Part shown: positions 36,785 through 59,796 of the stretch, one piece after another
Position numbering within the stretch: the stretch's first letter is position 1
Layout of the letters: every line of letters begins with the position of its first letter
DNA from: Candidatus Poribacteria bacterium
GTDB taxonomy: Bacteria; Poribacteria; WGA-4E; WGA-3G
Assembly: GCA_963663765.2 (NCBI GenBank)
Contig: CAXXUA010000005.1
Span: 768,001 to 832,000 of the forward strand
Reading direction: 5' to 3'
DNA: 64,000 nt
Translations under genes and position numbers: made by a program
Notes under the pieces: model-generated
Seen by the model: only the letters and a program-made list of their open reading frames with translations
Told to the model about the DNA's origin: nothing
The model's database searches: none

Positions 36785-36960
36785 ACATTCTGCCAGATTG
36801 TGCGAGCAGTTGTAGCACATTCTGCCAGATTGTGCGGACAGTTGTAGCACATTCTGCCAGATTGTGCGGACAGTTGTAGCACATTCTGCCAGATTGTGCG
36901 GGCAGTTGTAGCACATTCTGCCAGATTGTGCGAGCAGTTGTAGCACATTCTGCCAGATTG
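36785..36960 (+). repeat. Tandem 32-bp REP-like units (ACATTCTGCCAGATTGTGCGxxCAGTTGTAGC)
   Basis: About 5.5 copies; GTAG followed by a hairpin. Confidence 0.95.
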
Positions 36961-39522: not shown

Positions 39523-39680
39523 TAGGACTTACGCAAAAACGGTAGGCGGTGAATGCCTAAATGGCATTCATACCGTTGATTTGGTGCTTTGTAAGCGCGC
39601 TGGAAACCCATAGAAACGCTGATAATTACATCATTTTCATCATAATATTTGATTAAAACAAGAAAACTGCGTAAGTCCTG
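39523..39680. mobile_element. MITE sharing ends with the IS701-like element
   Basis: TIR (T/C)AGGACTTACGCA, 5-bp TSD CACAC; carries a REP with a micro-insertion. Confidence 0.88.
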
Positions 39681-39708
39681 CACACAATCTGATAGTAGGA
39701 GAAGTCCA

Positions 39709-39951
39709 TTGAAAAAAATAGATCGCATTACGTTTAATCCAAATGTAATGGGTGGTAAAGCGTGTATACGTGGCATGAGAGTTACCGTTGGAACAGTTGT
39801 TGGTTTGGTTACTTCTGGTTATTCTAATGCTGACATTCTTAAAGCCTACCCTTATTTGGAAGAAGAAGATATTCATCAATCTCTATCTTATGCCGCATGG
39901 CGTGTTGAAGAAATAGAGGTACCACTGAACAACTATGAAGTTGCTGATTGA
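39709..39951 (+). CDS. DUF433 antitoxin
   Basis: RITFNPNVMGGKACIRGMRVTV...YPYLEEEDI; AGGAG RBS. Confidence 0.92.
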   Translation: MKKIDRITFNPNVMGGKACIRGMRVTVGTVVGLVTSGYSNADILKAYPYLEEEDIHQSLSYAAWRVEEIEVPLNNYEVAD

Positions 39952-40297
39952 TATGAATCTCCCACCCGATTGGGTAAATATATTTCAACAGCACGGATGG
40001 TATGCTATTCATTGGCGAGAAATTGGTGATCCACGTGCATCAGATAGTACTATCATGGCATGCGCGCGTGACAACGGTTATGTTGTCTTCAAAAGGGATC
40101 TTGACTTTGGAACGTTGCTTGCAACTACTAATGCGAAAGGTCCAAGCGTGATTCAGATTCGTGCAAAAGACGTTATTCCTCAGACTATGGGAAATTTGCT
40201 TGTTGAAGTTATTCATCAACACCATTCAACTTTAGATCAGGGTGTTTTGATTACCGTGACCGAAGATCGAGTTCGTTTACGGACTTTGCCTTTATAG
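39935..40297 (+). CDS. DUF5615 PIN-like toxin
   Basis: MKLLIDMNLPP, ASD, DLDFG. Confidence 0.9.
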   Translation: MKLLIDMNLPPDWVNIFQQHGWYAIHWREIGDPRASDSTIMACARDNGYVVFKRDLDFGTLLATTNAKGPSVIQIRAKDVIPQTMGNLLVEVIHQHHSTLDQGVLITVTEDRVRLRTLPL

Positions 40298-40314
40298 ACG
40301 AGGATACATAAGTC

Positions 40315-41787
40315 TTACATTCTGCTATGTCCTTCCGCTTCAAACTTCTCTAACAGTGTTGTCAACCGTTCCACAATTTCTGGACAACTGTCCCAGTGAT
40401 TGTCTGTTTCATAAGGATCGTCGTAAATATGATATAGTTGCCCAGGAGAGTCCGGTTTGGGACCGCCGTCACTGGGTGGAGGCCATCCACCTGATCCTTG
40501 AGTGCCTATAATCAGTTTCCACTCTTCGTGCCGTATAGAAAAGACACCGTTGCTGGAATGGTGTACGATCGCTTCACGTAAAGGATGTTCTGTTTCTTCA
40601 CCTAACAAAGCAGGTAAGATGTTGCAACTATCTTCTCCTGCGTTGTCTGGTACTTGCTTTCCAACAATCGCAGCAGATGTTTCCATCAAATCGGTTAAGC
40701 ACACCAACTCATCCGATGTTGTATTCGGTTGAATTACACCGTTCCATCTTGCAATGAAAGGTTCACGATGTCCACCTTCCCAGATATGTGCCTTATATCC
40801 ACGCCAGTCGCCACAAGATTTGTGATCGTATAGGTTATATGGCATTGGACCTTTTCCACCGCGAACTCGGTCACCAGGTAGGGCTCCGTTATCACTGGTA
40901 ACAAAGATCAATGTATCATCCGTTTTCCCCGTGCGGTCTAAAGCATCCATCACCTCACCGACCATCCAATCAACTAACCAGACGAGATCACCTCTGGGAC
41001 CCGCATCGCTTTTTCCACGTGCAAATTCTGGTACGACCTCTTCCACACACGGTTCATGCGGAGCTGAAGGTGTCATATACAGAAAGAACGGATCATCCGA
41101 ATCTGCTTGTGTTTCAATGTATTCAACAGCCTTCTGTGCGATCATTGGGTCTGCATCCTTATGTTGCCAACTTGGTGCGGTCATTCCACGTCGTCCGGTA
41201 AAGTCTGGCACCCCACGGTATTCACTTGGAATTTCAACAAAAGCGTCATTTTCAATAAAGCCATACGGGGGTTGGCATGTCGGGCAGCCTGCTGTTCCGT
41301 AGAAATAGTCAAACCCAATATCGTTTGGTCCGCCTGTTATTGGTGCGTGAAAATCAATATGTTCTTCTAACTCGCGTTTCGCATTGCCCCATGGCAGCGG
41401 TGCATCAAAATCGTAATCGTAGTCCGGCACCGTCGAAAACCCCATCCCTAAGTGCCATTTACCGACACAGGCAGTATTGTATCCCGCATCTTTCAACATA
41501 CTGGCAACTGTCAAACGTTCAGGCTCAATCAAAGCGGGTTCATACCCATATAGCACACCTCGCTTAAGACGACTCCGCCAGCAATATCTGCCTGTTAGGA
41601 CACCGTATCGGGTGGGTGTGCAAACAGCAGATGGAGAATGCGCATCAGTAAAGCGAATTCCTTCCTGTGCAAGTTGATCCATATTTGGGGTAGGAATTTT
41701 TGAATCTGGGTTATAACAACCGACATCCCCGTACCCCATGTCATCAGCCATAATGAAAATAATATTTGGTTGTTTTTGAAAATCCAT
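40315..41787 (-). CDS. Arylsulfatase family protein
   Basis: ADDMGYGD, CTPTR FGly motif, GKWHLG, SDNG. Confidence 0.96.
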   Translation of the reverse strand: MDFQKQPNIIFIMADDMGYGDVGCYNPDSKIPTPNMDQLAQEGIRFTDAHSPSAVCTPTRYGVLTGRYCWRSRLKRGVLYGYEPALIEPERLTVASMLKDAGYNTACVGKWHLGMGFSTVPDYDYDFDAPLPWGNAKRELEEHIDFHAPITGGPNDIGFDYFYGTAGCPTCQPPYGFIENDAFVEIPSEYRGVPDFTGRRGMTAPSWQHKDADPMIAQKAVEYIETQADSDDPFFLYMTPSAPHEPCVEEVVPEFARGKSDAGPRGDLVWLVDWMVGEVMDALDRTGKTDDTLIFVTSDNGALPGDRVRGGKGPMPYNLYDHKSCGDWRGYKAHIWEGGHREPFIARWNGVIQPNTTSDELVCLTDLMETSAAIVGKQVPDNAGEDSCNILPALLGEETEHPLREAIVHHSSNGVFSIRHEEWKLIIGTQGSGGWPPPSDGGPKPDSPGQLYHIYDDPYETDNHWDSCPEIVERLTTLLEKFEAEGHSRM

Positions 41788-41821
41788 ATTACTCCAATAG
41801 AGAACAGTAGGTATAACGCAT

Positions 41822-43042
41822 CTACTGTAATTTCTTCTTTAATTCCGCGAGTTCTTTGTCAATTGATGCTTCTTCAGCATACCCCGCAAACTCACGTTCT
41901 AATTTCGTATCTTGATATACGACATCTACTTCAGCTGCGGCTTTCGCCAAAGTAGCCGACTCGGACGCGTCCTGCTCTATCTTTACCAGCGTTCCAAACG
42001 CTTTAGTGTCTTGTAATTCATTGAGCATCTCACGGAGATGGTTTTCGGCATCAATGTTTCTGTGTTGTGCGACGACTGCTGTCTTTTTCCCTTCAGCTTC
42101 CATCATCTTCTGTTGAAGATGTTCAAAAAGGTCGCTGAGTGCTTGAACAACCTCTTTCTGTTCATCCCATTGTGCATTGTATTGATTGGCAAGTTGGCGG
42201 TATTCGTTGCGCTGGGTAAGGTCTTCCCGTGCCAAATCTTCACGTCCAGCTTTGATTGCAATAGTTGCCCGTTCTTCACACCGTTTGGCTTGAGCGAGAG
42301 CACCTTCATAAGCGTCCTGAAATTGTTTTTCAACGCCGATGGAAGCGTCAACCTTCTCGCGTGCTTCTGAAAGTCTATTTGTCATCTCAGCGATGGTGTT
42401 CTCTAAAACCATTTCCGGGTCTTTGGTCTCAGTCTCAATCTGTTCCAATTCTGGCTCATATTTCACAACAACTGTCTCTGCTAACTTATCCCCCATCCGC
42501 TGCCGTCTTTTTCCGAATGTCCAGAAGAAATCCAACGGCTGCAAGATTGATGTGAGTCGGCGAATGAATGAGTCCTTGAGAGTGGCAGGTTTGCCATCTT
42601 TCAATCGAAGTACTTGTAATGATAGCAACTTTTTACCAATCCCTTGTCCATTTTTGAAACCGTCCATGAAAAATAGACCGGCTGCCCACAAGGCAATCCC
42701 TCTCCAAGTTAGGACCTGGAAATCGTCACCTATCCACAATCCAAAAAGAAAAACTATAAACAGTTGTGCGGCAACCAGTACTATTATTGGATGTTTGGTT
42801 TTCGGTCCGAATATCCACAGTAATGCGCTGAACAATCCAATCAGAATAGTAGAAAAACCCACTGCTATCAAGAGAAAGAACGCAATCAATAGGATACTCG
42901 CGAGGAACATTCCATCTATGAAAAACGCAGACAACCGCGCCCTTCGGGAGCCTAATGTAAATTCTTTGCCTGCAATTTTAATAGTCTTCACTTTCAACCC
43001 TATAAATTCTTTTGTGTTTGTGCTATAGATGTTCTGATGCAC
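41822..43042 (-). CDS. RDD-PspA/IM30 fusion protein
   Basis: RLSAFFID..GKKLLSL..QRMGDKLAETVVV, then DPEMVLE...GREDLARE...IDKELAELKKKL. Confidence 0.85.
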   Translation of the reverse strand: MHQNIYSTNTKEFIGLKVKTIKIAGKEFTLGSRRARLSAFFIDGMFLASILLIAFFLLIAVGFSTILIGLFSALLWIFGPKTKHPIIVLVAAQLFIVFLFGLWIGDDFQVLTWRGIALWAAGLFFMDGFKNGQGIGKKLLSLQVLRLKDGKPATLKDSFIRRLTSILQPLDFFWTFGKRRQRMGDKLAETVVVKYEPELEQIETETKDPEMVLENTIAEMTNRLSEAREKVDASIGVEKQFQDAYEGALAQAKRCEERATIAIKAGREDLAREDLTQRNEYRQLANQYNAQWDEQKEVVQALSDLFEHLQQKMMEAEGKKTAVVAQHRNIDAENHLREMLNELQDTKAFGTLVKIEQDASESATLAKAAAEVDVVYQDTKLEREFAGYAEEASIDKELAELKKKLQ

Positions 43043-43091
43043 ATTTATTTCTGTAGTTTACCTTTAATTCTGCTAACAGCGTATCTCATAT

Positions 43092-44210
43092 CTATTGTAG
43101 TTTTGCTTTTAGTTCTGTGAGTTCTCTGTCAATTGATTCGTCATCTGCATACTTCTCAAATTCGCGTTGTAAGTTTATGTCCTTGAATTCAATATCTACT
43201 TCGGATGCAGCCTTTGCTAAGGCAGCAGCCTCAGTTACGTTTTGCCCCATTTTCTTGAGTATTTCAAAAGCTTTATTATCACGGAGTTCTGTCAATGTTT
43301 GTTGTAGATGTTCTTGGGCATCCACATTTCTGTGTTTGGCTATTACAACGTCCCTTTCTCTCTGTGTTTGCTGTGTTTTTTGTTGTAAGGCATCAAGTAA
43401 CGTTGTGAGATGTTCTACAGTCTGTTTCTGTTCCTCCCACTGCTGTTTGTATTGGGTTGCAAGTTGTTGGTATTCATTTCGTTGTGCGAGGTCTTCCCGT
43501 GCCAAGTCTTCTCGTTCAGCTTTCAGTGCAATGAGTGCGCGTTCTTCACATTTTTTGGCTTGTGCAACAGCACCATCGTGAGCATTTTGAAACTGTTTTT
43601 CTATCCCAATAGAAGCATCTACCTTTTGCTTCGCTTCTGAAAACCGATTTGTGATTTCCAGGATAACATCTTCTAATACCTTTTCAAGGTCCTTTTCTTC
43701 GTTTTCTGCTTCACGTTCAACTTCTATATCAGACACAATTTCTACAATTGGTGAATCTAATTGTACTACAACCGTTTTCGCGAGCTTATCTCCCATTCGT
43801 TGCCTTACTTTTCCAGATAGAAATAACCAGTCAATAGGTTGAAATATACCTGAAAAACGTCGCACGAAAGCGTCCCATAAGTTTGCTGGTTTTCCATCTT
43901 TCAATCGGACAATTTGTAGAGATAAGAGCCTTTTTCCAAACCCACCCCCTTTTATGACACCGTCCATACAAAATATGCCAAAGAACCACAAGACAACAGA
44001 TAATAGAATCATAGATCTTAATGTTAGTTGATTTGCATCATAGATGTCCAGAAAGAAAAATTTTTCAAGAACCCAAATTTCCAAGTATCCTCCAAGAAAC
44101 ACAATACATTGGAGGAAAACACAGAGAACTATGTCCAGCAAAAACGCGCAGAACCGCTTCCATCGAGATGCTAATTTAAACTTTTCCCCTATGATCTTTA
44201 CAAAAGACAT
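43092..44210 (-). CDS. RDD-PspA/IM30 fusion protein (paralog)
   Basis: RFCAFLLD..GKRLLSL..QRMGDKLAKTVVV, then PspA helices ending IDRELTELKAKL. Confidence 0.85.
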   Translation of the reverse strand: MSFVKIIGEKFKLASRWKRFCAFLLDIVLCVFLQCIVFLGGYLEIWVLEKFFFLDIYDANQLTLRSMILLSVVLWFFGIFCMDGVIKGGGFGKRLLSLQIVRLKDGKPANLWDAFVRRFSGIFQPIDWLFLSGKVRQRMGDKLAKTVVVQLDSPIVEIVSDIEVEREAENEEKDLEKVLEDVILEITNRFSEAKQKVDASIGIEKQFQNAHDGAVAQAKKCEERALIALKAEREDLAREDLAQRNEYQQLATQYKQQWEEQKQTVEHLTTLLDALQQKTQQTQRERDVVIAKHRNVDAQEHLQQTLTELRDNKAFEILKKMGQNVTEAAALAKAASEVDIEFKDINLQREFEKYADDESIDRELTELKAKLQ

Positions 44211-44436
44211 TCTTACAATTCCTCTATAGCGTATCTCATAAATGCAATTTTGTCCAAATTCATCAAATCACGCGTCTGGTAAATCGGGGTTTCTAACCTC
44301 GATTGTTTGAGCCAAAACCTGCAAATCGGGGTTAGAAACACCTCCAACAACTCTAATAGTAAACGTTTCAACAATAGGTCACATCACTAAATTGACACCC
44401 GGGGAATGCTATAGAGAATTCAGACCTTTGATTAAT

Positions 44437-45100
44437 GGGTAAAACTATGCAAAATCCATAGGCGTCAATTTAAGCGACAAATCCCGCCACACATTGTAGG
44501 GCGGGGTCTCTGTGCCCCGCCATGTATTCAAAAAGGAAACAATGGGCGGGCACAGAGACCCGGGGAATGCCTAAATGGCATTCATACCGTTGATTTCTTG
44601 ATTTGGTCCCTACAATCAAGATGACAACGTTGGTTGTGCTAAACTGAACAATACCTTGAAATAAATCCCTAAATTGACGCCTATGGGTATAACTATGCAA
44701 AACCTATAGGTGTCAACTTAAGGATATTAACCTCTTGTGGGAGGGGTTTTCAACCCCGACAGAAGCCAAACGCGCTTCTGACGTTGATTTGGATTTATTA
44801 GGGCATTTCCGCTCAAATCGGGGTTAAAAACCCCTCCCACAAGAGAAAATGCAAACAATATTTTCTTAAGTTGACACCTATAGGGTATAACTATGCAAAA
44901 CCCATAGGTGTCAACTTAAGGATATTAACCTCTTGTGGGAGGGGTTTTCAACCCCGTCAGAAGCCAAACGCGCTTCTGACGTTGATTTGGATTTATTAGG
45001 GCATTTCCGCTCAAATCGGGGTTAAAAACCCCTCCCACAAGAGAAAATGCAAACAATATTTTCTTAAGTTGACACCTATGGGTATAACTATGCAAAACCC
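44437..45100. mobile_element. Three ATAGG(T/C)GTCAA-TIR MITEs separated by four 21-bp direct repeats
   Basis: Repeats at 44437, 44685, 44883, 45080; inserts 44458-44684, 44706-44881, 44904-45079. Confidence 0.85.
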
Positions 45101-45192
45101 AACCTACGAAAAGTCTTTCCTACATCAAACTATTACACATATCTCTTAATAATAGAGCCAGTAAGAATGAAAAAGATAGCCAAATTACGTGG

Positions 45193-46257
45193 TTACAATG
45201 TGGGGACTGTTACCTCCACTTCACGTCCATCAGATTCAGAGGAATCAATGACTCCCTGAATGATGACGTTAGTTAGCAGGACACCGTAAGGATCAATCGG
45301 TGAGGGTTTGCCTTCTCTAACAGCATCAATAAACGCACTATCTTCCTCGTGAAACACATTTACCGACTTAAATTCCGTGTATGTTTCATCATGGATCTCA
45401 CCGTTCTTGTCACCATAGACACGTACACCATTCTGAGGACCGCGCACTTCACCGACTCCGACGCGTAAACCTGCTTTCTTACCGAGAAAAATAGTACCAC
45501 CAAGGGAATCCATATTCATACACCAACATGTCTTGAAAACCATGCGTGCACCGTTGTCAAATACCACCCAACCGACACCGAAATCTTCTACCTCTGTTTC
45601 TCTGAGTGCGGGATTCCAATTGTTGTGTAGACTTAAGTAGTTTGAGGTAATGCCTGAGACAGCAACAGGTTTGGGGTGTTCCATCAGATAGAGTGCAGTA
45701 TCCAATGCGTAGACACCGATGTCTGCGGACGCGCCTAAACCGGCTGTCGCTTTACGTATGAAACTGCCACCAGGATTGCCGCGACGTCTGTCTGCTACAG
45801 TCTCAACGTAATAGATGTCACCCAGTGTACCAGCGTCTACAATCTCTTTCGCCTTGATGACTTGGGAGGAATAGCGAAGTTTTAATCCAATCATGAGTAT
45901 TTTGTCGTTTTCCACGGATGCACGCCACATTGCAGCTGCTGCGTCCAACGTTGCTTCCATGGGTTTTTCGCAGAAGACGTGTTTGCCCGCGTTGAGTGCA
46001 GCAACGGTTGGAGCAGAATGTACACCTGTCGGGGTGCATACGTAGACCGCTTCAATCTCATCCATTTTGAGCATTTCGTTATAATCGGTGAATGTATTTT
46101 TGATTCCCCATCTTTCTTTTGCGCGTTCTAAGTTACCCGATACCAAGTCTGCAGCTGCGATAATTTCCGCGCCTTCTATGTTAGCAAGCGTTCCGCAATG
46201 TGACTGTGCAATGCCACCTGCCCCAATTAAACCTAATTTGACTGTTCTCATAGCCAT
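45193..46257 (-). CDS. Gfo/Idh/MocA family oxidoreductase
   Basis: IGAGGIA, CTPTGVH, GKHVFCEKP. Confidence 0.95.
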   Translation of the reverse strand: MAMRTVKLGLIGAGGIAQSHCGTLANIEGAEIIAAADLVSGNLERAKERWGIKNTFTDYNEMLKMDEIEAVYVCTPTGVHSAPTVAALNAGKHVFCEKPMEATLDAAAAMWRASVENDKILMIGLKLRYSSQVIKAKEIVDAGTLGDIYYVETVADRRRGNPGGSFIRKATAGLGASADIGVYALDTALYLMEHPKPVAVSGITSNYLSLHNNWNPALRETEVEDFGVGWVVFDNGARMVFKTCWCMNMDSLGGTIFLGKKAGLRVGVGEVRGPQNGVRVYGDKNGEIHDETYTEFKSVNVFHEEDSAFIDAVREGKPSPIDPYGVLLTNVIIQGVIDSSESDGREVEVTVPTL

Positions 46258-46396
46258 CTCCTCGTTACAGATATATTTTATTGATTTTATCCTTTTTCAT
46301 TTTCATAGTCAAGTTAATTTATGGTGCGGGGTGTGTAATGTTTTGGCACAAACTGCTCATTCTCCATGGTAGGGCGGGGTCTCTGTGCCCCGCCGC

Positions 46397-47071
46397 ATAG
46401 GTGTCAACTTAGCGATTCATATTATTGTTGGAGGAAAATCTTGAAATCACGATTTTCTCACTCAAGGTAGACGTGCTTTGTAAGCGCACCCCCCCAACTG
46501 CACTCCCTCGCACTCACCCGCACTCACCTGCAGGCGTGCTTTGTAAGCGCACCAAGCACTCACCCGCACTCACCCACACTCCCCTGCAGGCGTGCTTTGT
46601 AAGCGCACCCCGAACTCACCCGCACTCAACCGCAGGCGTGCTTTGTAAGCGCACCCCTCAACTGCAGGCGTGCTTTGTAAGCGCACCCAACACTCACCCG
46701 CACTCAACTGCAGACGTGCTTTGTAAGCGCACCCCTCAACTGCAGGCGTGCTTTGTAAGCGCACCCAACACTCACCCGCACTCAACTGCAGACGTGCTTT
46801 GTAAGCGCACTCCTCAACTGCAGGCGTGCTTTGTAAGCGCGCCTGCACTCACCCGCACCCCCCAACTGCAGGCGTGCTTTGTAAGCGCACCTACCAACTG
46901 CACTCCCCTGCAGGCGTGCTTTGTAAGCGCGCCAAGCACTCACCCGCACTCCCCTGCAGGCGTGCTTTGTAAGCGCACCGTTGCCAATCCTGTGTTTATC
47001 GGCGCACTTACAAAGCACACCTACCGGGATGGGGTATTTAGCACTTGACTTTTTCTTAAGTTGACACCTAA
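46397..47071. mobile_element. ATAGGTGTCAACTT-TIR MITE containing a REP tandem array
   Basis: 21-bp imperfect TSD at 46376-46396 and 47072-47092; GCAGGCGTGCTTTGTAAGCGC repeats 46467-47023. Confidence 0.8.
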
Positions 47072-47714: not shown

Positions 47715-48323
47715 ATGACAGCAAACGCAATAACACTTTATAGACTTTTTATGACTCTTATTGTTATCATCATTTTCGGACAACATCTATACATCAATAT
47801 AGCGTGTGTTGTAACAATTGTCCTAATTTATATACTTGATGCGGTGGATGGTATCGTTGCTCGTAGGCAGGATAAGGCAACAACATTCGGTGCTGTCTTT
47901 GATATTGCAGCGGATAGAGTGATTGAAAACGTATTCTGGATATACTTTGCTGCTAACAGTTCTATTCACGTCTGGATGCCGATTGCCGTGGTGACGCGTG
48001 GGTTTCTCACAGATGGTGTCCGTGGCCTTGCACTTACAGATGGAAAAACACCTTTTGAGATGATGGCTATACCTTGGACGCGCGCATTGACAAGTTCTCG
48101 TATCTCTCGCTTTTTCTCCGGTTTTTCTAAAGCACTCGCCTTCACTTGCCTCTCAGCTATTCCTGTCGTTGAAGAGATTTTTTCCCATAACGACACTGTT
48201 ATAAGTGCCTTTAAGACTGCATCTGTTGTAATAGCAATTTTTGCTGTTGGTATCTGTTTGATCCGCGGTTTCCCTGTGCTTATTGATGGGTGGAAGTATA
48301 TTAAAGAAAGTAGTCAAAAATGA
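47715..48323 (+). CDS. CDP-alcohol phosphatidyltransferase
   Basis: DAVDGIVARR....TFGAVFDIAADR signature. Confidence 0.93.
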   Translation: MTANAITLYRLFMTLIVIIIFGQHLYINIACVVTIVLIYILDAVDGIVARRQDKATTFGAVFDIAADRVIENVFWIYFAANSSIHVWMPIAVVTRGFLTDGVRGLALTDGKTPFEMMAIPWTRALTSSRISRFFSGFSKALAFTCLSAIPVVEEIFSHNDTVISAFKTASVVIAIFAVGICLIRGFPVLIDGWKYIKESSQK

Positions 48324-49329: not shown

Positions 49330-50601
49330 TTAACTGGCACAAGTCGTTAATTTACCTTCTGACGTATCAACAAGTGAATTTAGAATGGGCAGCAACGAAT
49401 TCATTGTTGGCACATCGCGGAAGGTAAAGCCGAATTGTGAGAAATAGTCTGACTCCGACAACGCATCCGCGATAATCTGTTGCTTCTCCAACTCCTTTGA
49501 TACACCGAGAATAAGGGGTGTGTCGGTATGTTCCGCAAGTGTATTGAGACGGGCAAGTAGATGTCCTTGGTGCCACGGATGGAACAGCTCAATTGCGATT
49601 TTCACACCACTGCTATGGATCAGTTGATAATCTGGGAAGCAGTAGAAATCACCGGGTAAAGGTAGAAACTGACTTCCAGGGTGTATCTGCCATGTATCGG
49701 TTTTGTTGCGGAGCATCTCTTGAAAGAGATGAATGTCTTCAGGAATGTAGGCGAGGAATTGTTGCGATATGGGTTTGATACCGCACGAATCATCAAGAAT
49801 CAACCGACAACTCTGTTTATTGCGAAACTGAATTTCCGCGGTGAGTTCCCATTTCGGTTGATGTAGTATAGCGACAAAAAAATTGGCTAAGTTCATGCCA
49901 TATCGTTTGGTTTTGTAAAAGAGGTTTAGCGGTCCGTCTACAGTAATGTGGAATAGATCCTCGTTTGTGGTTTTCTCCTTCCGAATAGTGGAGAGGAGTT
50001 GGTTAAATCTAAGATACTTGAACAACTGCCGGAGTTCTGCTGTCATGGATTCAGTGAGAACTAATGTGAGTGTGTTGCAATGTAGGAGCAATCCTTGCAC
50101 CTGCGCAGTGTTGTAGCGGTGGAGTAGATGTTCGGCAGATATTCTTCTGAAAGACAGCACGGGTTGGCAATTCGGCAGATCCGCATAGAGTTTATCACCC
50201 AACCCGTTCCCCTCTAATACCCCTTCGTTTCCAACAATCTGCGAAACTTTCTGCTGATAGTCGGCATAATCCTGAAACCTTTCTTGTGAAAGCATGCGGC
50301 TTGTTTCTGTAAACAGTTTATGCCGAAATGCAATAAGTTCTTCATTAGGAGCAGTGTCAAACTCAGTGCGGTCTAATAGCAGTTTTTCAAAGCCACGTTT
50401 GATGATAAGTTGCCCTGATGTCGTATCAATGACATGTTTACTCGCTTCTAATATCGTTGCCCTCGGCTTGTCCTGTGATTCTTCAAACACGGATATTAGC
50501 TGGTCAGCAATTGCCAGTAATTTGCTGTCTGTAGGATCAACAAATTGGGGAAAAATCTTCCCTTTTTGAATTCTGTAGCGGAGTAGGTCTTTGGTAAGCA
50601 T
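49330..50601 (-). CDS. DUF790 (Bax1-like) endonuclease
   Basis: MLTKDLLR, LYADL, RYNTAQVQGLL, DGPLNLF..TKRYG, FPDY...IELF. Confidence 0.88.
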   Translation of the reverse strand: MLTKDLLRYRIQKGKIFPQFVDPTDSKLLAIADQLISVFEESQDKPRATILEASKHVIDTTSGQLIIKRGFEKLLLDRTEFDTAPNEELIAFRHKLFTETSRMLSQERFQDYADYQQKVSQIVGNEGVLEGNGLGDKLYADLPNCQPVLSFRRISAEHLLHRYNTAQVQGLLLHCNTLTLVLTESMTAELRQLFKYLRFNQLLSTIRKEKTTNEDLFHITVDGPLNLFYKTKRYGMNLANFFVAILHQPKWELTAEIQFRNKQSCRLILDDSCGIKPISQQFLAYIPEDIHLFQEMLRNKTDTWQIHPGSQFLPLPGDFYCFPDYQLIHSSGVKIAIELFHPWHQGHLLARLNTLAEHTDTPLILGVSKELEKQQIIADALSESDYFSQFGFTFRDVPTMNSLLPILNSLVDTSEGKLTTCAS

Positions 50602-50628
50602 AACGGTTTGATAGCACAGAGGATGTGC

Positions 50629-52008
50629 CTACGACTTTGTTTGGTAGGCGTGGTGTTGTCGTCTTCGTTTGTTGACATAATGTTCGCTGGTCTGTTTTGA
50701 AATGAGTTCGTAAAGTACAGCCTGTTTCCCCTCTCTTTTTCTTAGAATGCGTCCTAACCGCTGCACATGTTCACGCACACTACCACTACCGGAAACAATA
50801 ATAGCGACATTCGCTTCTGGCACATCTATACCTTCATTTAGCACTTTTGAGGTAACCAGTATAGAATAGGTACCGTCGCGAAATCCGTTCAAAAATGCAT
50901 TTCGTTCTTTGAGTTTCGTTTGATGCGTTAGTACAGGTAGGAAGAAGCGAGTGCCGATTTGATATGCGGTATCGTTGTCCTGCGTAAAGATGATGATGCG
51001 ATCCCCACTATGCCGTTGGATGAGTTTCCACACCCACTCCTGCTTCGTTGTGGAAGCAAAACTAAGCTGCTTCTGTGTGAGATATGCTTTGAATGCGGTG
51101 CGCCCCGCTTCGGATTGTGATGACTTCCACAAAAATGTTTTCCATCCGGATGATGTTCCCATGTTTATCCTTTCGCGCTTAAGGAAGTCCAAATAGGTCT
51201 TGCGTGCTGTTTCATACTGAACCCGTTCTGTGTCCTTCATGTCTACTGCGATTGTAACAACACGATAGGGTGAAAGCGTTTTACCAGAGAGTTCCTGCAC
51301 TTTTGCTTCATAACAACATTCTCCCACAAGTGCGTAGAGTCTGCTCTCTTTGCCATCAACGCGTTCGGGGGTCGCGGTCAATCCTAACCGAAATGGTGCA
51401 ATGCTGCTAATCGCACCATATTGATATTGTTCTCCCGGTAGGTGATGGCACTCGTCAAAGATGGCGAAACCGAAACGGTTCCCGTAATGCGGCGCATGCA
51501 TCACAGCAGATTGATAAGTGGTTACAGTCAGGTCGCATAGTTCGTGTTGTCCACCGCCATATAATCCTACCTCCTGCCCAAAATGTTCCTTGAGGACTTC
51601 GTACCATTGGTGCATCAAATCTATTGTCGGCACATGCACAAGCGTTGGACGTTGTGTTTCTGCAATGAGCAGAACTGCGATGAAGGTCTTGCCAGCACCT
51701 GTTGGTAGACTTACGACACCGCGCTGACCGTTGGCATGCCACGCGTCAATTGCTTCGCTTTGATACGGATACGGGGAGACATGTTTTTGATTGGTGAAGG
51801 TTTTGACTGTGAATTGTCGTGCCGTATCTTCATAAGGGATGTTGTTGGCACGTAGCTGCGAGACAATGCTACGATAGCGATAGGCTGGTGCACGGAAGGT
51901 AAGTGTACGTTCGTCCCACTGGATGTCCGGTAATTGTAGTTGGAGTACATCTGGGACGTTCTGTAGGATGAGCGTGCCTTTGTCAAAGTTTAGTTTGAGT
52001 GGTGCCAT
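50629..52008 (-). CDS. XPB/Rad25-like SF2 helicase
   Basis: LPTGAGKT, FDECHHL, GLTATPER, QRLGRILR; paired with DUF790. Confidence 0.92.
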   Translation of the reverse strand: MAPLKLNFDKGTLILQNVPDVLQLQLPDIQWDERTLTFRAPAYRYRSIVSQLRANNIPYEDTARQFTVKTFTNQKHVSPYPYQSEAIDAWHANGQRGVVSLPTGAGKTFIAVLLIAETQRPTLVHVPTIDLMHQWYEVLKEHFGQEVGLYGGGQHELCDLTVTTYQSAVMHAPHYGNRFGFAIFDECHHLPGEQYQYGAISSIAPFRLGLTATPERVDGKESRLYALVGECCYEAKVQELSGKTLSPYRVVTIAVDMKDTERVQYETARKTYLDFLKRERINMGTSSGWKTFLWKSSQSEAGRTAFKAYLTQKQLSFASTTKQEWVWKLIQRHSGDRIIIFTQDNDTAYQIGTRFFLPVLTHQTKLKERNAFLNGFRDGTYSILVTSKVLNEGIDVPEANVAIIVSGSGSVREHVQRLGRILRKREGKQAVLYELISKQTSEHYVNKRRRQHHAYQTKS

Positions 52009-52062
52009 GATTGGGTCTCAGGTGGAAACGGTATAATGGTGCGATTTTCAACAATTATGATG

Positions 52063-52704
52063 TTAACCGTTATCTGTTTTAGAGTAGGGTTGTGCTCCGA
52101 GTTGTAACAGTGGTTTGTTGTATGATGAATCAAAGGTGTAGACTGGTTTATTCCATTTCAAGAGTGTTTGTGCAAAATCTAAGGTCTTACTACCTTCTGC
52201 GGCATGCGCGATTAAAATTTTACTTGCCAATGCTGCGACAAAGTGATTGCGTTTACCCGCCATTGCGCTATTCTGCTGAGGTTCCTTATGGAATATGGAT
52301 AAGATCAGGAGTCTATCTTGAGATAACGGTTCTTTCCATTCTGGTTTAATTCGCATACTCTCAATACTCCGCGCTGGACTTATAATAATCGGTTGTGAAC
52401 CGCGTAGCAGCACACGCAAGCATTCCCTTTCAATAGGTGAATGAAACCCGCCAACTGTTGAAACCCCTTTATTTTTTAAATCGTGTGCTAAATCGTGTGC
52501 TTTTAAAATGATCTCACCGGGACATTTGTTAGAGCAGAATATTGCCCATACATCTTCTTTTTTAGCGTTGTTTGTTCTGTTAGGTAGTAAATCTATATTT
52601 CCACGCGCCCAAATCGTTTCTGGTGTATCATTCTTCAAGTATACCTGTATAGATGATGGAAAGTTCTTGTCTGTTTGGGTAATGCGTTGAATTGGTTGTG
52701 TCAC
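52063..52704 (-). CDS. DprA/SMF-like SLOG protein (short form)
   Basis: PETIWARGNIDLL, GGFHSPIE, RNHFVAALA. Confidence 0.8.
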   Translation of the reverse strand: MTQPIQRITQTDKNFPSSIQVYLKNDTPETIWARGNIDLLPNRTNNAKKEDVWAIFCSNKCPGEIILKAHDLAHDLKNKGVSTVGGFHSPIERECLRVLLRGSQPIIISPARSIESMRIKPEWKEPLSQDRLLILSIFHKEPQQNSAMAGKRNHFVAALASKILIAHAAEGSKTLDFAQTLLKWNKPVYTFDSSYNKPLLQLGAQPYSKTDNG

Positions 52705-52758
52705 TTTTGAATGCTGATGATATATCTGTTGAATTTTAATGATGTGTTAATCGTTTAC

Positions 52759-52900
52759 CTAATCGTTTAATTCTCGGATGTATTTAGTTCCTCTACCTTT
52801 TCCCACCACGGTCAATAAACCCTTATCTGTCAAATCCCTTAATTCCACATAAGCATAACGAAATGAAATCTTGTTAATTTCTACATATTCCTTGCAAAAG
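52759..52900 (-). pseudogene. Remnant C-terminal winged helix
   Basis: ELRDLTDKGLLTVVGKGRGTKY with no intact upstream gene. Confidence 0.5.
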
Positions 52901-52927
52901 TAGTGAATTTGGTTGACATGGTCTCTT

Positions 52928-53387
52928 TTATGGACTAACAATACGTCCCTGTTTGAGTGTTTCTATCTCATTTAGCAAGTTCTCTATCTGGTTCTGTTGG
53001 GATTCTATTTTCTCGTCTTGGGAATCTTATGTCTTTTTGTTGCATCGCGACGATGATTTGTGGTACTCCAACGACTACTGCTATGAAAGCGACTAAAGTT
53101 ATTACCAAAGCAAAGATTTGGTTTAAACGTTTATCCATTTCCACAATTGTAATATTCACCGGACGAATCTCACTTGCAATCTCTTGAGAAATATGTTCTT
53201 TCATTCGCTTCTCAGTGGTATCTACATATTCTTTCATACGCTTTTCAGATGTTTCAATTTCCTCTTTCACAACTAACCGGATCTTATTCAGGTCCGCATC
53301 TGTTAATTGACAGTAAGCGGTTGTGGTAAAGAGCATAAGTCCACTGATCAAAGTCATCATTAATTTCAATTGTGTCTCCTTCAACAT
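52928..53387 (-). pseudogene. Secreted/membrane coiled-coil protein, frameshifted near 53022
   Basis: The shifted frame restores QDEKIESQQNQIENLLNEIETLKQGRIVSP*. Confidence 0.6.
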
Positions 53388-53401
53388 GGTACTCGTTTAC
53401 T

Positions 53402-53605
53402 TTATTCTTCCCAAAAGTTTTCTACAGGAAACGGTTTGCTGCGTCCTTTTTATATCAACTTAACCCGAATTGTACCCGATCGGCGCGGCGGTGGCATGGT
53501 TATGGCAACATCCCAGTTAAGGATGTCTTCCTCATTGTCCGATGGAAAGGCGCGGCGTTGCGTCTGTTTGTCGTTAGTCGTGTTTGTGCGTTGTGGTGTT
53601 TTCAA
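53402..53605 (-). pseudogene. Decayed copy of 54673-54876 (TAT>TAA stop)
   Basis: Colinear 204-bp duplicate with a premature stop. Confidence 0.75.
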
Positions 53606-53646
53606 GATATTTTGTTCTCCTTTTACATAACAATTTTAACAGGAGC

Positions 53647-53780
53647 CTAGTGCTTAGTCAACATATTTTCGTAGGTCATGAATCGGAGATTGCTCCTACA
53701 GAAATCTTGGTATTGTAGGAGGGAACTCCGATTCCCGACTTCTTTTTAGCCCCATCAATAAACACTTGACTAAGCACTAG
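53647..53780. mobile_element. MITE with TIR CTAGTGCTTAGTCAA carrying two REPs
   Basis: Perfect 15-bp inverted ends. Confidence 0.8.
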
Positions 53781-53853
53781 ATTAGAATCGTTCACTTTTC
53801 CGACAGATCAACTTCCTATTCTTCCAAATTACAAGAACGTGAAAAACGATTAT

Positions 53854-54165
53854 CTAATCAAAGTCGTGATTGTGAGTTCGTTGAATATTACCATTTTTAT
53901 GGCAGACAACAAACTCAGTTTTCTGATTTCGACTCACCTGCCGTCCATACGCCACAGCACCCTTTTTGGTATCAAAGTGTTTCAATGCTCTCAAAGCGTT
54001 GCCGCGTACTACATCCCAACCTCCATCAGGATTGGAAACGACGTAATGTTCTTTCTCAGTACGACTGTAAACAACAGCCTCTACTGAACGCCGAACTTCA
54101 ACTCTTGAGAGTTTCCCGCGTTTCGGAGTGCTTTTGACAATTCTTTTTCTTCCCATTGTAATCAC
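53854..54165 (-). CDS. DUF2188 family protein
   Basis: HYVVSNPDGGWDV...HFDTKKGAVAYGR...HKNG. Confidence 0.8.
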   Translation of the reverse strand: MITMGRKRIVKSTPKRGKLSRVEVRRSVEAVVYSRTEKEHYVVSNPDGGWDVVRGNALRALKHFDTKKGAVAYGRQVSRNQKTEFVVCHKNGNIQRTHNHDFD

Positions 54166-54261
54166 CTCTCTTAGTCGTAATTCAAGAACTTAATCACTCG
54201 TAATCTTTAACCATTCCTCAATCACCAAAGTATAATCATTAAAAACCATCTCTTCAACTAT

Positions 54262-54637
54262 CAATACCTTCGCCAATAAATTACATTCTGTCAGATTGTG
54301 CGGGCAGTTGTAGCACATTCTTCCAGATTGTGTGGTCCGTTGTAGCACATTCTTCCAGATTGTGTGGTCCGTTGTAGCACATTCTTCCAGATTGTGTGGT
54401 CCGTTGTAGCACATTCTTCCAGATTGTGCGGTCAGTTGTAGCACATTCTTCCAGATTGTGCATATAAATTATTCTGTCAGATTCTATCGTCAAATTAGAC
54501 GCTATGATAAATAAAAATACTTCAACGAAAACCTGAAGTTATTTTTATTTATGTAATCCTAACAATATCACAGAGCAATGGTAGATCAACACTATATACT
54601 CATTCAACTGAAGCACTCAAAAATGGCGAAGGTATTG
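54262..54637. mobile_element. CAATACCTTCGCCA-TIR MITE with a 32-bp REP array (54283-54461)
   Basis: Perfect 14-bp TIRs; homologous to 36764-37513. Confidence 0.88.
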
Positions 54638-54672
54638 ATTATAGTGAGGTGATTTCATGAATTGTCAATTGC

Positions 54673-54876
54673 CTATTCTTCCCAAGGATTTTCTACCGGA
54701 ATTGGTTTGCTGCGTCCTTTATATATCAACTTAACCCGGATTGTCCCCGATCGGCGCGGCGGTGGCATGGTTATAGCAGCATCCCAGTCAAGGATGTCTT
54801 CCTCATTGTAAGTTGGAAAAGCGAGACGTTGCGTCTGTTTGTCATTAGATGTGTTTGTGTGTTTTGGTGTTTTCAT
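54673..54876 (-). CDS. Small hypothetical protein (67 aa)
   Basis: AAGGAG RBS; duplicated at 53402-53605. Confidence 0.65.
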   Translation of the reverse strand: MKTPKHTNTSNDKQTQRLAFPTYNEEDILDWDAAITMPPPRRSGTIRVKLIYKGRSKPIPVENPWEE

Positions 54877-54944
54877 GAGATGTATAGTTGCTCCTTTGCG
54901 AACAATTTTAACAGAAACTGATGATAATGGCAAATGATTTACTC

Positions 54945-56498
54945 TCATTCTGTATCTTTTTGAAAATGCCTACGTATAAACTCTGTTACCTCAATACCTA
55001 ATAATTTCTTTTTGCCTCCTTCAGTTTTGACGTGAAGTTCCCCCTTACCTGTATAAAAAATGTCCCTTCTTTGCGGAGGTGAGACTAAAAGTTCAACAAC
55101 CCATAAATCTTCTATAGTTTCTCCTGGCAAGTCATAGACATTATGAAATTCAAGGTGCCAGTCATCAACGCTAATTGGGGGACGTATTGCCCCAAGTTTT
55201 TCAGAGACTATACGACGAACTTCATCTCTCTGTTCTTCGTCAAGCTTTACACCTACTGTGATTCTATCGTTATTCCTTACACCCCAGAAAATTCGTCCAC
55301 CTTCGCGATTAAGAAAGGCAACAGCGTATATATCAGAAGTATCCGTGATGGAGCGAGAGGCATTTCCACCCACGATTTCCTTAAACTCGTAGAAGCGTGT
55401 TTCCTCAAAAGGGAGAGGTTGATCCAAAACAAAACGAATATGTGTCGGTTCAGTAAGGTTGTCAGCGTCTGTGGCACGCGCTAAGTATTCTTCAGCTAAC
55501 TGTTTGTTTGCACGTAATTCGGGAATTTCATCTTCCACATCGAGGACAATACCTTCTTCAAAACAATCAATCGCTTTTTGAAATTGTTCTGATCTGAGAA
55601 AAGCCAAGCCTTTATTATTCAATACGATTGCTTTACTAATCGGATCTATTACTGCGCTTAATGCTTTATCAAACATTTCATGTGCAAATTGAAACTCCCC
55701 AAGATGCATCAATGCTATTCCATCTTGCGAGAAAACCATTGGATTAACAGCCGAAGTCAATTCTCCAGCACGTAAATCCTCTGCTGCTTTAAATAAGGAA
55801 TAGTTTCCCCCTCCAATTGCCTCAACGTACTTTTCTTGCGCAGTTGCTAACCTCACTTGCGTACGAACTAGTGCTACCCGAACTCCGAGTTTAGCGTAGA
55901 GAAAACAGTAAGAAAGAACTTTCATATCGGCAATAAGGTTTTCTAATAATGGTGTTATGAACTGTGAATTAAGGATTTGAGTTAACCATTCTCGTGTTTC
56001 ATCCGAGGAATCCAACTGATCTGAACTTGACATCATTTGACGAAATATCTCCGTGTCACTATACAAAGCGAAAAGCAAAGCTGAAGGTGATGCAAGTAAT
56101 ATTCTCCCAATTGGCAGTTTATCTTCATCAGTTTGATATGCAGAATCAAGATAAAAGCGACTAAGCACATAATCAATTAATTCAAAGTCAATTCTTGCAA
56201 AGTAATACTCTGAAGTAATAAACTGTTCAATCTGTTCTTTATGCTCTTCCTTATTTGATAGAAATTCTTTAACCAATTGTGCAAAAGTTTCAATATCTTT
56301 TCTGATAACATACTGGTCTACTTGATCTTGATTTACTTTTTCACAGATATTGTCTGAGACAAGCGTTGTAAGTTGTTCCTCTAAATCTTCCAACGATTCG
56401 CCAATCTTATTACAAATTGCATCAGAATCTTTAGGATCGCTATCAAGTAGACTCAATACAATCTTTTTACGAATTAAATCGTCCATAACCTCTTCCAT
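54945..56498 (-). CDS. TPR + Schlafen (AlbA_2) domain protein
   Basis: TPR LNNKGLAF; EETRFYEFKE...AFLNREGGRIFWGV. Confidence 0.85.
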   Translation of the reverse strand: MEEVMDDLIRKKIVLSLLDSDPKDSDAICNKIGESLEDLEEQLTTLVSDNICEKVNQDQVDQYVIRKDIETFAQLVKEFLSNKEEHKEQIEQFITSEYYFARIDFELIDYVLSRFYLDSAYQTDEDKLPIGRILLASPSALLFALYSDTEIFRQMMSSSDQLDSSDETREWLTQILNSQFITPLLENLIADMKVLSYCFLYAKLGVRVALVRTQVRLATAQEKYVEAIGGGNYSLFKAAEDLRAGELTSAVNPMVFSQDGIALMHLGEFQFAHEMFDKALSAVIDPISKAIVLNNKGLAFLRSEQFQKAIDCFEEGIVLDVEDEIPELRANKQLAEEYLARATDADNLTEPTHIRFVLDQPLPFEETRFYEFKEIVGGNASRSITDTSDIYAVAFLNREGGRIFWGVRNNDRITVGVKLDEEQRDEVRRIVSEKLGAIRPPISVDDWHLEFHNVYDLPGETIEDLWVVELLVSPPQRRDIFYTGKGELHVKTEGGKKKLLGIEVTEFIRRHFQKDTE

Positions 56499-56520
56499 GT
56501 TTGAGTAATTGCTCTAGACT

Positions 56521-59500: not shown

Positions 59501-59796
59501 ATAGATTTATCGGTGTTTGCATATATGATTAAGTTCTCGTAAGAAGTTTTTGCGACCTGTTTTTGTATCTTGCGGCGGGTGGCATAATCTGGAATGTTTT
59601 CCTGAGATATAGGTTGTGGACATTCGTAGACTGCCATACCGCGTTTCTGTGCAATTGCGGTAAGTATGTATTCGGTTTCATCTACTACTATTGGCAGGGT
59701 TTGCGTATGATTCTCCCAACCGAGAGTTTGCGTAAAGAGATCTTCAAATTCGGATTCCCTAAGGTATTGGCGTGTTTCGTTGAGGTTAATTTGCAT
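56521..59796 (-). CDS. Eco57I/type IIG-like N6-adenine DNA methyltransferase with C-terminal TRD
   Basis: YLNGGIF, GAYYT, DPTCGSGAF, YGVDI, IGNPPY. Confidence 0.92.
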   Translation of the reverse strand: MQINLNETRQYLRESEFEDLFTQTLGWENHTQTLPIVVDETEYILTAIAQKRGMAVYECPQPISQENIPDYATRRKIQKQVAKTSYENLIIYANTDKSIQIWQWVKKEQGKPDACREHRYENWQSGESLIQKLQNIVIPLEEEEGLTLFDVTGRVHASFDVEKVTKKFYDRFKKEHDAFLEFLSGIPDEEMQKWYVSVMLNRLMFIYFIQKKGFLNSDINYLQTKLRETQEKGTDLYYKEFLCPLFFEGFAKPEDERTPEMSRLLGKIPYLNGGIFQKHQLETLHGENIEIPDTAFEQIFNFFEQYDWHLDDRPLRNDNEINPDVLGYIFEKYINQKQMGAYYTKEDITEYISKNTIIPFLFDKAREKCKIAFDGNTFVWKLLQENPDKYIYDAVKKGTDLDLPEDIAIGIDKVSERTKWNERAPDGVDEIALPTEIWREVVARRQRYETVRSKLANGEIKNINDLITYNLNIRQFAQDVIENCEGPELLRAFWKAITKVTVLDPTCGSGAFLFAALNILEPLYEACLNRMQVFVDELKLSDEKPHPKKYSDFHEVLKKINQHPNHKYFVLKSIIIHNLYGVDIMDEAIEICKLRLFLKMVAQIDNVKDIEPLPDIDFNIQAGNTLVGFATYEEVEKAVTERLDSHFDDTMQRIEDKAKDIKKLYDEFRDQQTTHGGVVTPEDKQNLQGRLMELEDELNEYLAFVYAIDKNDQSKYQEWKKSHNPFHWFIAFYGILQDGGFDVIIGNPPYRSINKINYSPVNYNTIECRDLFALCCERSSFLNNKSGSFSMIIPLNGYSTEKMCSLRTLLLKSYSENHLSYFSASDQPASLFTGVRYRLMIFVNRRSCSKVISTTRFLKWFNSEREFLFNAILQSHSIEDLVYLPANSKLSSSLEESVLKKVFEKPTLGKWRHKRGIEDSAIYYHNAPVHWGKVLDFIPFYQVGNERPKKSSHIKSLYFDKDISKVVLCFLNSNLFYWWNWHFTNCRDLTFTDIDRSRVDLSGFSHESIETFRQLSDSLMTDLRKNSKIYKRVVRGVLTQFDSFYPALSKHIIDDIDRELAQHYCFTEEELDFIINYDFKYRMGLKYFTSG

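Follow-up and report, generated by a model that had tools for sequence, protein, structure and literature searches.

How does a protein of the PspA/Vipp1 type reach the membrane when the helix that normally takes it there is missing? In current models of PspA, Vipp1 and the ESCRT-III proteins, the N-terminal helix a0 is key to membrane binding and bending (PMC12358876). The question is raised by a stretch of 64,000 nucleotides (nt) of a Candidatus Poribacteria bacterium (assembly GCA_963663765.2, contig CAXXUA010000005.1, positions 768,001 to 832,000), referred to as the window, in which two neighbouring genes, A and B, each join an N-terminal membrane domain of the RDD family to a PspA_IM30 domain. 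We give a somewhat better than even chance to the answer that their products are lastingly anchored in the inner membrane and form a PspA-type polymer on its cytoplasmic side.

Two adjacent genes that join RDD to PspA

The two genes and the parts that were distinguished within them are listed with the basis of each assignment:

43092..44210, minus strand: gene A, RDD-PspA fusion of 372 amino acids (aa), 'A-type' paralogue (open reading frame (ORF) and Pfam; 33-row clade)
43776..44171, minus strand: RDD domain of A, residues 14-145 (Pfam, AlphaFold2 (AF2) model, hydropathy)
43695..43760, minus strand: acidic linker of A, residues ~151-172, at the site of the canonical helix a0 (predicted local distance difference test (pLDDT), charge, hydrophobic moment, conservation)
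43101..43697, minus strand: PspA_IM30 domain of A, a1-a5, residues 172-370 (Pfam, Vipp1 alignment, model, Foldseek)
41822..42991, minus strand: gene B, RDD-PspA fusion of 389 aa from the GTG at 42991 (ORF, Pfam, alignment)
42479..42943, minus strand: RDD domain of B with a ~40-residue hydrophobic insertion relative to A (Pfam, ORF residues 34-188; alignment; hydropathy)
41831..42442, minus strand: PspA_IM30 domain of B, a1-a5 (Pfam, ORF residues 201-404)

In both products the two domains scored above the Pfam cut-offs: RDD (PF06271, cut-off 24.1 bits) with 49.4 bits in A (E 7.3e-13, residues 14-145) and 32.8 bits in B (E 9.6e-8), and PspA_IM30 (PF04012, cut-off 33.9 bits) with 75.5 bits in A (E 5.9e-21, profile positions 21-217 of 220) and 75.8 bits in B (E 5e-21, profile positions 16-217 of 220). 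The PspA part opens with KDLEKVLED in A and KDPEMVLEN in B, and 190 of the 399 aligned residues of the two proteins are identical (48%, E 2e-119). The original prediction, which was made from the letters of the window, had described two adjacent paralogues whose RDD domain is followed by a near full-length PspA region opening at DLEKVLE or DPEMVLE; in all of this, including the placement of the genes, it was right.

The longest ORF for gene B spans 41822-43042 (406 aa), with an internal GTG (MKTIKIAGKEF) at 42991, 17 codons in. Because gene A and 22 of the 23 fetched homologues begin at the aligned position, that GTG is most likely the true start, which would give a product of 389 aa. A six-frame profile search of the 64-kb window recovered A and B alone as copies of the family. 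An assembly artefact or chimera was considered and ruled out: 131 near-full-length copies were found in 64 assemblies, many of them complete chromosomes.

A complete a1-a5 region without helix a0

The PspA part of the fusion aligns with canonical family members from just behind their first helix. Residues 20-216 of Synechocystis Vipp1 (sll0617) match residues 171-371 of A (E 6.8e-14), and dozens of canonical PspA representatives of 220-260 aa align to the family only from residue ~21-23 onwards. At the other end, A and B stop 1-2 residues past the a5 match (residue 371 of A corresponds to residue 216 of the 266 in Vipp1), and the Vipp1 alignment shows no C-terminal extension of the Vipp1 type (helix a6) after a5 in either protein.

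What precedes a1 is of a different nature. The linker between RDD and a1 (~22 residues) has a family mean net charge of -6.2 and a conservation of 0.31, and residues 153-172 of A have a pLDDT below 50, i.e. the model is disordered there. Over 125 family rows, the best 18-residue hydrophobic moment of the segment before a1 averages 0.16, at a net charge of -5.6; the N-termini (24 residues) of 46 canonical PspA representatives have a moment of 0.52 and a net charge of +1.3. By the same measure, no replacement amphipathic helix was found in the linker in these 125 rows. Helix a0 is thus replaced by an acidic, non-amphipathic linker together with the RDD membrane module, much as the original prediction had proposed when it noted that a transmembrane (TM) domain appeared to have taken the place of the N-terminal helix.

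The remaining helices are kept. All of a1-a5 are conserved in the family, with a mean majority-residue fraction of 0.73-0.82, and we take them to be under strong selection. In the AF2 model of full-length A, built from a 25-row alignment, helices span residues 162-230, 234-292, 299-344 and 349-371, i.e. a hairpin of a1 and a2-3 followed by a4 and a5. When this model was compared to the PDB with Foldseek, the top 17 matches were all Vipp1 or PspA (best E 9e-6), as were all 9 matches at E <= 1e-3, and the hairpin superposed on E. coli PspA(1-144) (4whe) with a root-mean-square deviation of 2.1 Å over 115 columns and a target TM-score of 0.74. The model therefore supports an ESCRT-III-type fold for the C-terminal half. 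The original prediction had made itself dependent on this region resembling PspA_IM30 or ESCRT-III; Pfam and the Vipp1/PspA structures at the head of the PDB matches both bear out the resemblance.

Membership in the Pfam families does not extend to the named systems. Phage-shock PspA proper is defined by NCBIfam TIGR02977 / NF007974 and LiaH by NF045984, and the two proteins score far under the cut-offs: 65.5 and 46.7 bits against 242.95 for the PspA equivalog TIGR02977, and 49.1 and 36.3 bits against 380 for the LiaH equivalog. Since the scores, partners or extensions that define these systems were tested for and not found, A and B are by their sequences members of the Pfam PspA_IM30 and RDD families, and not phage-shock PspA proper, LiaH or Vipp1.

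The RDD module and its place in the membrane

Hydropathy gives two membrane spans for A and about four for B, in which the ~40-residue insertion, as judged from alignment and hydropathy, adds ~2 spans relative to A; the 'multi-TM' RDD domain of the original prediction is therefore apt for B, and amounts to just two spans in A. The AF2 model of residues 1-160 of A (90-row alignment; pLDDT 79.9, predicted TM-score (pTM) 0.67) has a beta-hairpin (3-13), two helices (16-51 and 56-80) matching the pair of hydrophobic segments of A, and an alpha/beta core (91-150). Across 131 copies, both the N-terminus (mean net charge +5.1) and the stretch after the last span (+5.6) are strongly basic. Because the number of spans is even and both ends are basic, we infer by the positive-inside rule that the N- and C-termini of RDD are cytoplasmic, and hence that the PspA domain lies in the cytoplasm.

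The RDD family takes its name from an Arg ahead of the first TM helix and from two Asp residues, all of them conserved. In an alignment of 90 RDD domains, R16/R19, D83 and D141 are kept in at least 90%; they are invariant in 25 family members, and by position only they would be the name-giving residues; R117, R118, D127 and R138 are likewise conserved in at least 90%. Most of these residues fall in the cytoplasmic core of the model, outside the membrane. The TM helices are the least conserved part of the protein after the linker (0.37-0.43), and the N-terminal hairpin reaches 0.77.

The RDD module can be multiplied in a single polypeptide. An 879-aa ORF in one of the loci (L031:2867-5506) carries four RDD repeats and then one PspA domain, and two representatives, P0122 (504 aa) and P0125 (566 aa), carry two RDD repeats before one PspA.

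Could RDD then be the working part, a small cation/proton transporter or channel that the PspA coiled coil clusters, gates or senses? The device would in that case guard ion balance or the proton-motive force, and not membrane shape. An RDD protein of Halobacillus andaensis, a distant member known from a single report, has been described as a Na+(Li+,K+)/H+ antiporter that depends on Arg and Asp residues (PMC5996927), and the fusions have a highly conserved RDD core containing R16, R19, D83, R117, R118, D127, R138 and D141, and RDD is doubled or quadrupled before a single PspA in P0122, P0125 and the L031 ORF. However, the TM helices, where the transport path would be expected, are the poorly conserved part, their number varies between paralogues, and the conserved residues are mainly cytoplasmic. 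A solved structural relative of the RDD-only model was not recovered by Foldseek from the PDB (0 matches at E <= 1e-3; the best, a chain of a peroxisomal ubiquitin ligase, has E 0.44), hence there is no tie to a transporter fold, and conservation of all of a1-a5 would be unneeded in a mere regulator. We consider a transporter at the heart of the system unlikely, and prefer the reading in which RDD holds a PspA-type polymer to the membrane.

Distribution and origin of the family

We scanned one genome per species and collected loci from the best 80 of 162 confirmed matches. The fusion was found in 64 loci from 64 different assemblies, of which 61 are titled Poribacteria and 3 'uncultured bacterium'; among the matches beyond the best 80 it could spread outside the Poribacteria. 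Searches of protein collections gave a similar picture. Among proteins clustered at 90%, both domains were present in 118 of the best 120 of 640 matches, and the 8 organism-named entries among these 120 are all Candidatus Poribacteria, labelled 'PspA/IM30 family protein' or 'hypothetical'. A phmmer search of 1.84 billion representatives gave 992 matches at E <= 1e-3 and 23 at E <= 1e-30, with fragments first and then plain PspA below the latter level. In 15 of the top representatives, PspA_IM30 was detected in every case (above cut-off in 13) and RDD above cut-off in 9, just below it in 2 and not at E <= 1e-3 in 4. The ESM Atlas contains one matching cluster (115 members, RDD 100%, PspA 100%) with Poribacteria as the commonest taxon. 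Most of the distant representatives have relatives of 55-90% identity in the loci, and five (P0124, P0130, P0131, P0138 and P0142) reach only 39-46% identity to locus copies. The other PspA fusions that were scanned have PspC, adenylate kinase, alpha-2-macroglobulin, CesT or HigB as partner, and none has RDD. RDD-PspA is thus a family found throughout the Poribacteria, a phylum associated with sponges, and not a one-off.

The PspA domains of 36 sampled members form one branch with respect to 49 canonical ones (Shimodaira-Hasegawa-like approximate likelihood-ratio test (SH-aLRT) support 100), which fits a single old fusion event at the origin of the family. Possible separate halves were also looked for. 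Short proteins related to the RDD part alone were sought, with 7 matches that are all fragments of the same family, and a search with the PspA part alone gave 114 matches, all within the family, a result that gives no verdict on canonical PspA in Poribacteria. Thirteen of the matches annotated with PF04012 only were inspected as candidates for RDD-less forms; 7 start at the internal Met of RQRMGDK, 4 later, and 2 upstream inside the RDD core, and we regard all of them as truncated gene calls.

Arrays of old paralogues

With the window included, the collection comprises 65 loci, of which 56 are complete in the sense that they are flanked by both conserved neighbours (described below). Copies within a locus always lie on one strand. 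The complete loci contain one copy (11 loci), two (28), three (13) or four (2), the remaining two having three copies plus a fragment and two frameshifted pieces only. Between the second-last and the last copy, 14 loci, the window not among them, carry a 101-aa ORF without Pfam match (e.g. L020:5621-5926); neither this cluster of small ORFs nor a second in-array cluster (201 aa, 6 loci) shows similarity to the family profile.

In a maximum-likelihood tree of the 131 copies, the paralogue clades each span many genomes and keep their position in the array: labelling the tree by array position requires 22 changes against 53.9 after shuffling, and none of 200 shuffles was as low. The paralogue types are old. 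Gene A falls in a 33-row clade (support 100/100) whose members close the array in 32 of 33 cases. Only in the window does the A-type gene precede B, and this suggests that the array order was rearranged locally, or that a copy was lost and re-duplicated. Gene B groups with the long four-span type, its nearest relative being in locus L056 (81% identical).

Paralogues that occur together differ mainly in what lies in the membrane. For 85 co-resident pairs, the median identity falls from 0.69 in PspA and 0.65 in the RDD core to 0.27 in the TM region. Types B and C, which occur together, are set apart by 18 fixed differences; just 1 of these is in the PspA helices, the other 17 being in the N-terminus, TM region or RDD core. 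Such near-identical PspA surfaces make co-assembly of paralogues possible. For the two PspA domains (residues 165-372 in A, 182-389 in B), a complex prediction run without controls gave a score of 0.00 (mark 0.32) and is silent on binding.

Each paralogue could also be imagined to form an anchored polymer of its own, at its own membrane site or under its own condition, with no mixing at all. The single-copy loci would fit this, as their copies come from different paralogue clades and any one type therefore seems sufficient, and the assemblies of bacterial PspA, Vipp1 and LiaH have been described as homo-oligomeric (PMC12358876). Yet the old types were retained side by side and in fixed order in most genomes, and nothing obvious would keep co-resident B and C types, with their near-identical PspA surfaces, apart. 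Homopolymers only are in our view distinctly unlikely, and tethered polymers in which paralogues can mix remain the reading that we develop here.

A proposed membrane-tethered PspA-type polymer

In the proposed working, the RDD module would sit in the inner membrane, crossing it twice in A and about four times in B, and stand in for the peripheral helix a0, and the flexible acidic linker of 20-30 residues would hang the a1-a5 polymerisation domain on the cytoplasmic face. By way of the usual hairpin/a5 contacts, tethered subunits would then form carpets, spirals or rings, and these would stabilise or bend the inner membrane without recruiters of the PspB/C or LiaI type. Where several of the 1-4 tandem paralogues are present, they could mix in one polymer, as it is chiefly the TM modules that set them apart. 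The sequences and models establish the architecture, the absence of a0, the class of fold, the distribution of the family, its paralogy and its synteny, whereas the topology, the polymerisation, any mixing of paralogues and a function in membrane maintenance are what we infer.

Two considerations make the scheme plausible. The Foldseek matches include deposited assemblies that lack a0, 8qhx ('Vipp1 H1-6 helical tubes') and 9hzm ('SynPspA H1-5 rod'), which going by their titles indicates that polymerisation needs no more than a1-a5. Furthermore, since a0 at the N-terminus of a1 touches the enclosed membrane tubule in PspA rods (PMC12358876), a TM anchor flexibly joined to the same end of a1 would point the right way, and the geometry seems compatible with tethering.

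Other observations weigh against the scheme, or against parts of it: i) the cytoplasmic core of RDD (conservation 0.78; 33 of 69 columns at least 0.9) is as conserved as the PspA helices, so that RDD probably has a role beyond passive anchoring; ii) the model of full-length A is only moderately confident (mean pLDDT 66.4, pTM 0.36); iii) the 17-kDa RDD on each subunit may not fit the narrow lumen of a rod or ring, where the N-terminus points according to the published geometry (PMC12358876), and flat carpets or spirals would for that reason be more likely than closed rods or rings; iv) since 11 of the 56 complete loci have a single copy, the hetero-polymer that the original prediction had considered possible cannot be a requirement throughout the family; and v) a role in membrane repair leaves the tight, conserved linkage between the array and a sulfatase gene unaccounted for.

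A more far-reaching version would see in the family an integral-membrane ESCRT-III in which RDD is a coupling or regulatory domain and 2-4 ancient paralogues, alike in their PspA surface and different in their TM modules, co-assemble into one hetero-polymer, and which is maybe the sole PspA-type system of the Poribacteria. This seems doubtful to us; if true, the Poribacteria would have, fixed for good in their inner membrane, a bacterial equivalent of eukaryotic ESCRT-III with its several subunits. We also considered a connection with the 'compartments' of poribacterial cells and dropped it: the accessible part of PMC5087111 does not mention PspA, and the polar bodies that it describes are apparently not membrane-bound.

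Genetic context of the array

The features that flank the two genes are:

40315..41787, minus strand: sulfatase gene, 34 nt downstream of B (Pfam Sulfatase, E 5.9e-48)
45193..46257, minus strand: GFO/IDH/MocA oxidoreductase, conserved upstream neighbour (Pfam; same cluster in 60/65 loci)
44211..45192, no strand: repeat-filled intergenic region upstream of A (repeat search)

The order GFO/IDH/MocA, RDD-PspA array, sulfatase was kept in 56 of the 65 loci. In its fuller form it starts with ThuA and a Zn-dehydrogenase on the opposite strand, and beyond the sulfatase it often continues with a DUF433/PIN-like pair on the other strand, followed by a PhyH dioxygenase, one or more sulfatases and a lactonase; the window carries the same conserved order, reversed. 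In each of the 56 complete loci the last copy is followed by a sulfatase gene, at a median distance of 36.5 nt (at most 43 nt in 44 of the 56), and the median distance from the array to the upstream oxidoreductase is 151 nt. Array and sulfatase are likely co-transcribed, and the promoter of the array should lie in 44211-45192. A promoter and terminator scan of 40000-46500 gave no excess over shuffled sequence (13 and 5 sites against 12.5 and 5.9).

No domain of PspB, PspC, PspF or LiaI/LiaF was detected in the 18 neighbouring ORFs (30253-59796), nor any Psp or Lia partner domain in 18 conserved neighbour clusters of the related loci, so that the original observation that no partner of the pspBC/pspF type is adjacent holds for the window and beyond it.

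Sulfatase genes are a hallmark of carbohydrate use by Poribacteria. The one in the window has the C-x-P-x-R motif (CTPTR) and a catalytic domain that starts at residue 7; as this leaves no room for a signal peptide, the enzyme seems to reside in the cytoplasm, where one would not expect a sulfatase that acts on polysaccharides.

Such an enzyme brings up the possibility that the fusions are docking scaffolds, whose PspA coiled coil holds the cytoplasmic sulfatase and the oxidoreductases at the membrane, for example beside an importer of sulfated sugars, with no ESCRT-III-like remodelling involved. PspA proteins also act by binding other proteins, as E. coli PspA does with PspF, and this counts in favour of a scaffold, as do the gene order kept in 56 of 65 loci, the median of 36.5 nt between last copy and sulfatase on one strand, and the lack of room for a signal peptide. 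Synteny within one phylum can, however, be inherited without functional coupling, no usual enzyme-docking domain was found, and the literature consulted on phage-shock-protein (PSP) systems and ESCRT-III yielded no link between the PspA family and sulfatases. We judge docking to be quite improbable, and retain the tethered polymer as the explanation of the fusion.

Several further elements surround the array. Near it lies a gene for a CDP-alcohol phosphatidyltransferase (phospholipid synthesis; 47715-48323) with homologues in 19 of the 65 loci, mostly on the opposite strand and directly upstream of the oxidoreductase gene; through it a link of the array to membrane lipid metabolism is possible. 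Between the sulfatase and PhyH, on the opposite strand (39649-40297), lies a DUF433/DUF5615 (PIN-like) pair, which is probably a toxin-antitoxin module and occupies the same place in ~18-22 related loci. The genes at 49330-59796 look like nucleic-acid defence or repair and comprise: a DUF790 protein with an XPB/ResIII helicase, a DprA-like protein, a TPR protein with Schlafen AlbA_2, and a 1091-aa methylase of the Eco57I/MmeI type. PADLOC matched no defence system (one stretch at E 0.007 was disregarded), and 0 Rfam families were matched in the window.

Repeats are frequent between the genes. Upstream of A, at 44435-45117, there are 2.2 tandem copies (97% matches) of a 198-nt element with internal inverted repeats of 25-28 nt, as well as partial copies; its 20-mer core occurs 4 times in the window, always within 44435-45117 (0 expected by chance), and it has the look of a small palindromic element, either mobile or a repeat. 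Intergenic tandem repeats were also found at 36785-36960 (32 nt, 5.5 copies, 97% matches) and at 46500-46980 (units of 32, 46, 56 and 78 nt), and both of these arrays create spurious repeat-rich ORFs.

What the fusion could tell

The family amounts to a natural experiment on the a0 model: a phylum swapped a0 for TM helices, kept a1-a5 and multiplied the gene. If the proteins polymerise, they would show how an ESCRT-III lattice behaves when every subunit is covalently fixed in the bilayer, and would provide structural biologists with a self-anchoring PspA for reconstitution. The fusion would also give the poorly understood RDD domain its first cellular context. The fixed linkage to a sulfatase is a further, unexplained lead.

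Comparison with known systems

More than 98% of ~2,500 PspA homologues have been counted as single-domain proteins (PMC11237479), and tandem PspA repeats and fusions to NlpC/P60 and PspAA are among the architectures that this survey names; its main text contains neither 'RDD' nor 'Poribacteria', and its supplementary tables may list the architecture. 'RDD' is absent from two reviews of bacterial and archaeal ESCRT-III (PMC7619361, PMC10936438), and full-text searches recovered no description of an RDD-PspA design, no mention of Poribacteria in the literature found on PspA, Vipp1, IM30 or ESCRT-III, and only unrelated papers for Poribacteria combined with phage shock. The original prediction had allowed that the architecture might already be characterised; no characterisation was found, and as far as these searches reach the fusion has been catalogued by automated pipelines (precomputed Pfam, the Atlas cluster) but not described or studied.

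With PspA, Vipp1 (IM30) and LiaH the family shares a1-a5 of PF04012 and a hairpin that superposes on solved PspA and Vipp1, whereas a0 is missing and the RDD module and acidic linker are in its place. Unlike Vipp1, the proteins end with a5, at about residue 216 of the 266-277 of Vipp1, without a C-terminal extension, and in contrast to canonical PspA their PspA domains form a branch separate from the 49 representatives compared. To the RDD family they are related by a Pfam match above cut-off, by the conserved Arg and Asp residues and by the presence of two or more TM helices. The stand-alone RDD proteins found, in contrast, have ~140-200 aa and are 30-40% identical to the query when the RDD domains are aligned, and in the fusions RDD is N-terminal to PspA; cation/proton antiport is the reported activity of one RDD member (PMC5996927).

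Holding a PspA-family protein at the membrane by a small integral membrane protein is known from LiaI-LiaH and PspB/PspC-PspA, and LiaI recruits LiaH (PMC7619361; PMC11237479). In the poribacterial family, however, anchor and effector are one polypeptide, and tethering would for that reason be constitutive rather than stress-induced; moreover, the anchor is RDD and not PspC or LiaI-LiaF-TM, and no regulator genes are nearby. An analogue is a PspC-PspA fusion, P0210 (274 aa), in which a membrane domain also precedes a PspA that starts at profile position 20 and has lost a0. Its membrane domain is PspC (PF04024) and it was seen once in 30 representatives scanned, and it is an independent case in which a membrane domain has taken the place of a0. 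In some Actinobacteria, Snf7 is fused to a transporter of the RND family (PMC11237479), which likewise joins an ESCRT-III-superfamily domain to an integral membrane protein, but concerns the Snf7 branch, a large transporter and another phylum, and is not known to form arrays of paralogues.

Multiple paralogues of one ESCRT-III-superfamily protein, finally, connect the family to the hetero-polymers of eukaryotic ESCRT-III and to cyanobacteria, where adjacent PspA/Vipp1 paralogues form dyads and triads that have been read as tandem duplications tied to oligomeric complexes (PMC11237479). In cyanobacteria these paralogues retain a0 and are soluble or peripheral, whereas the poribacterial ones are all membrane-integral and differ mostly in their TM module.

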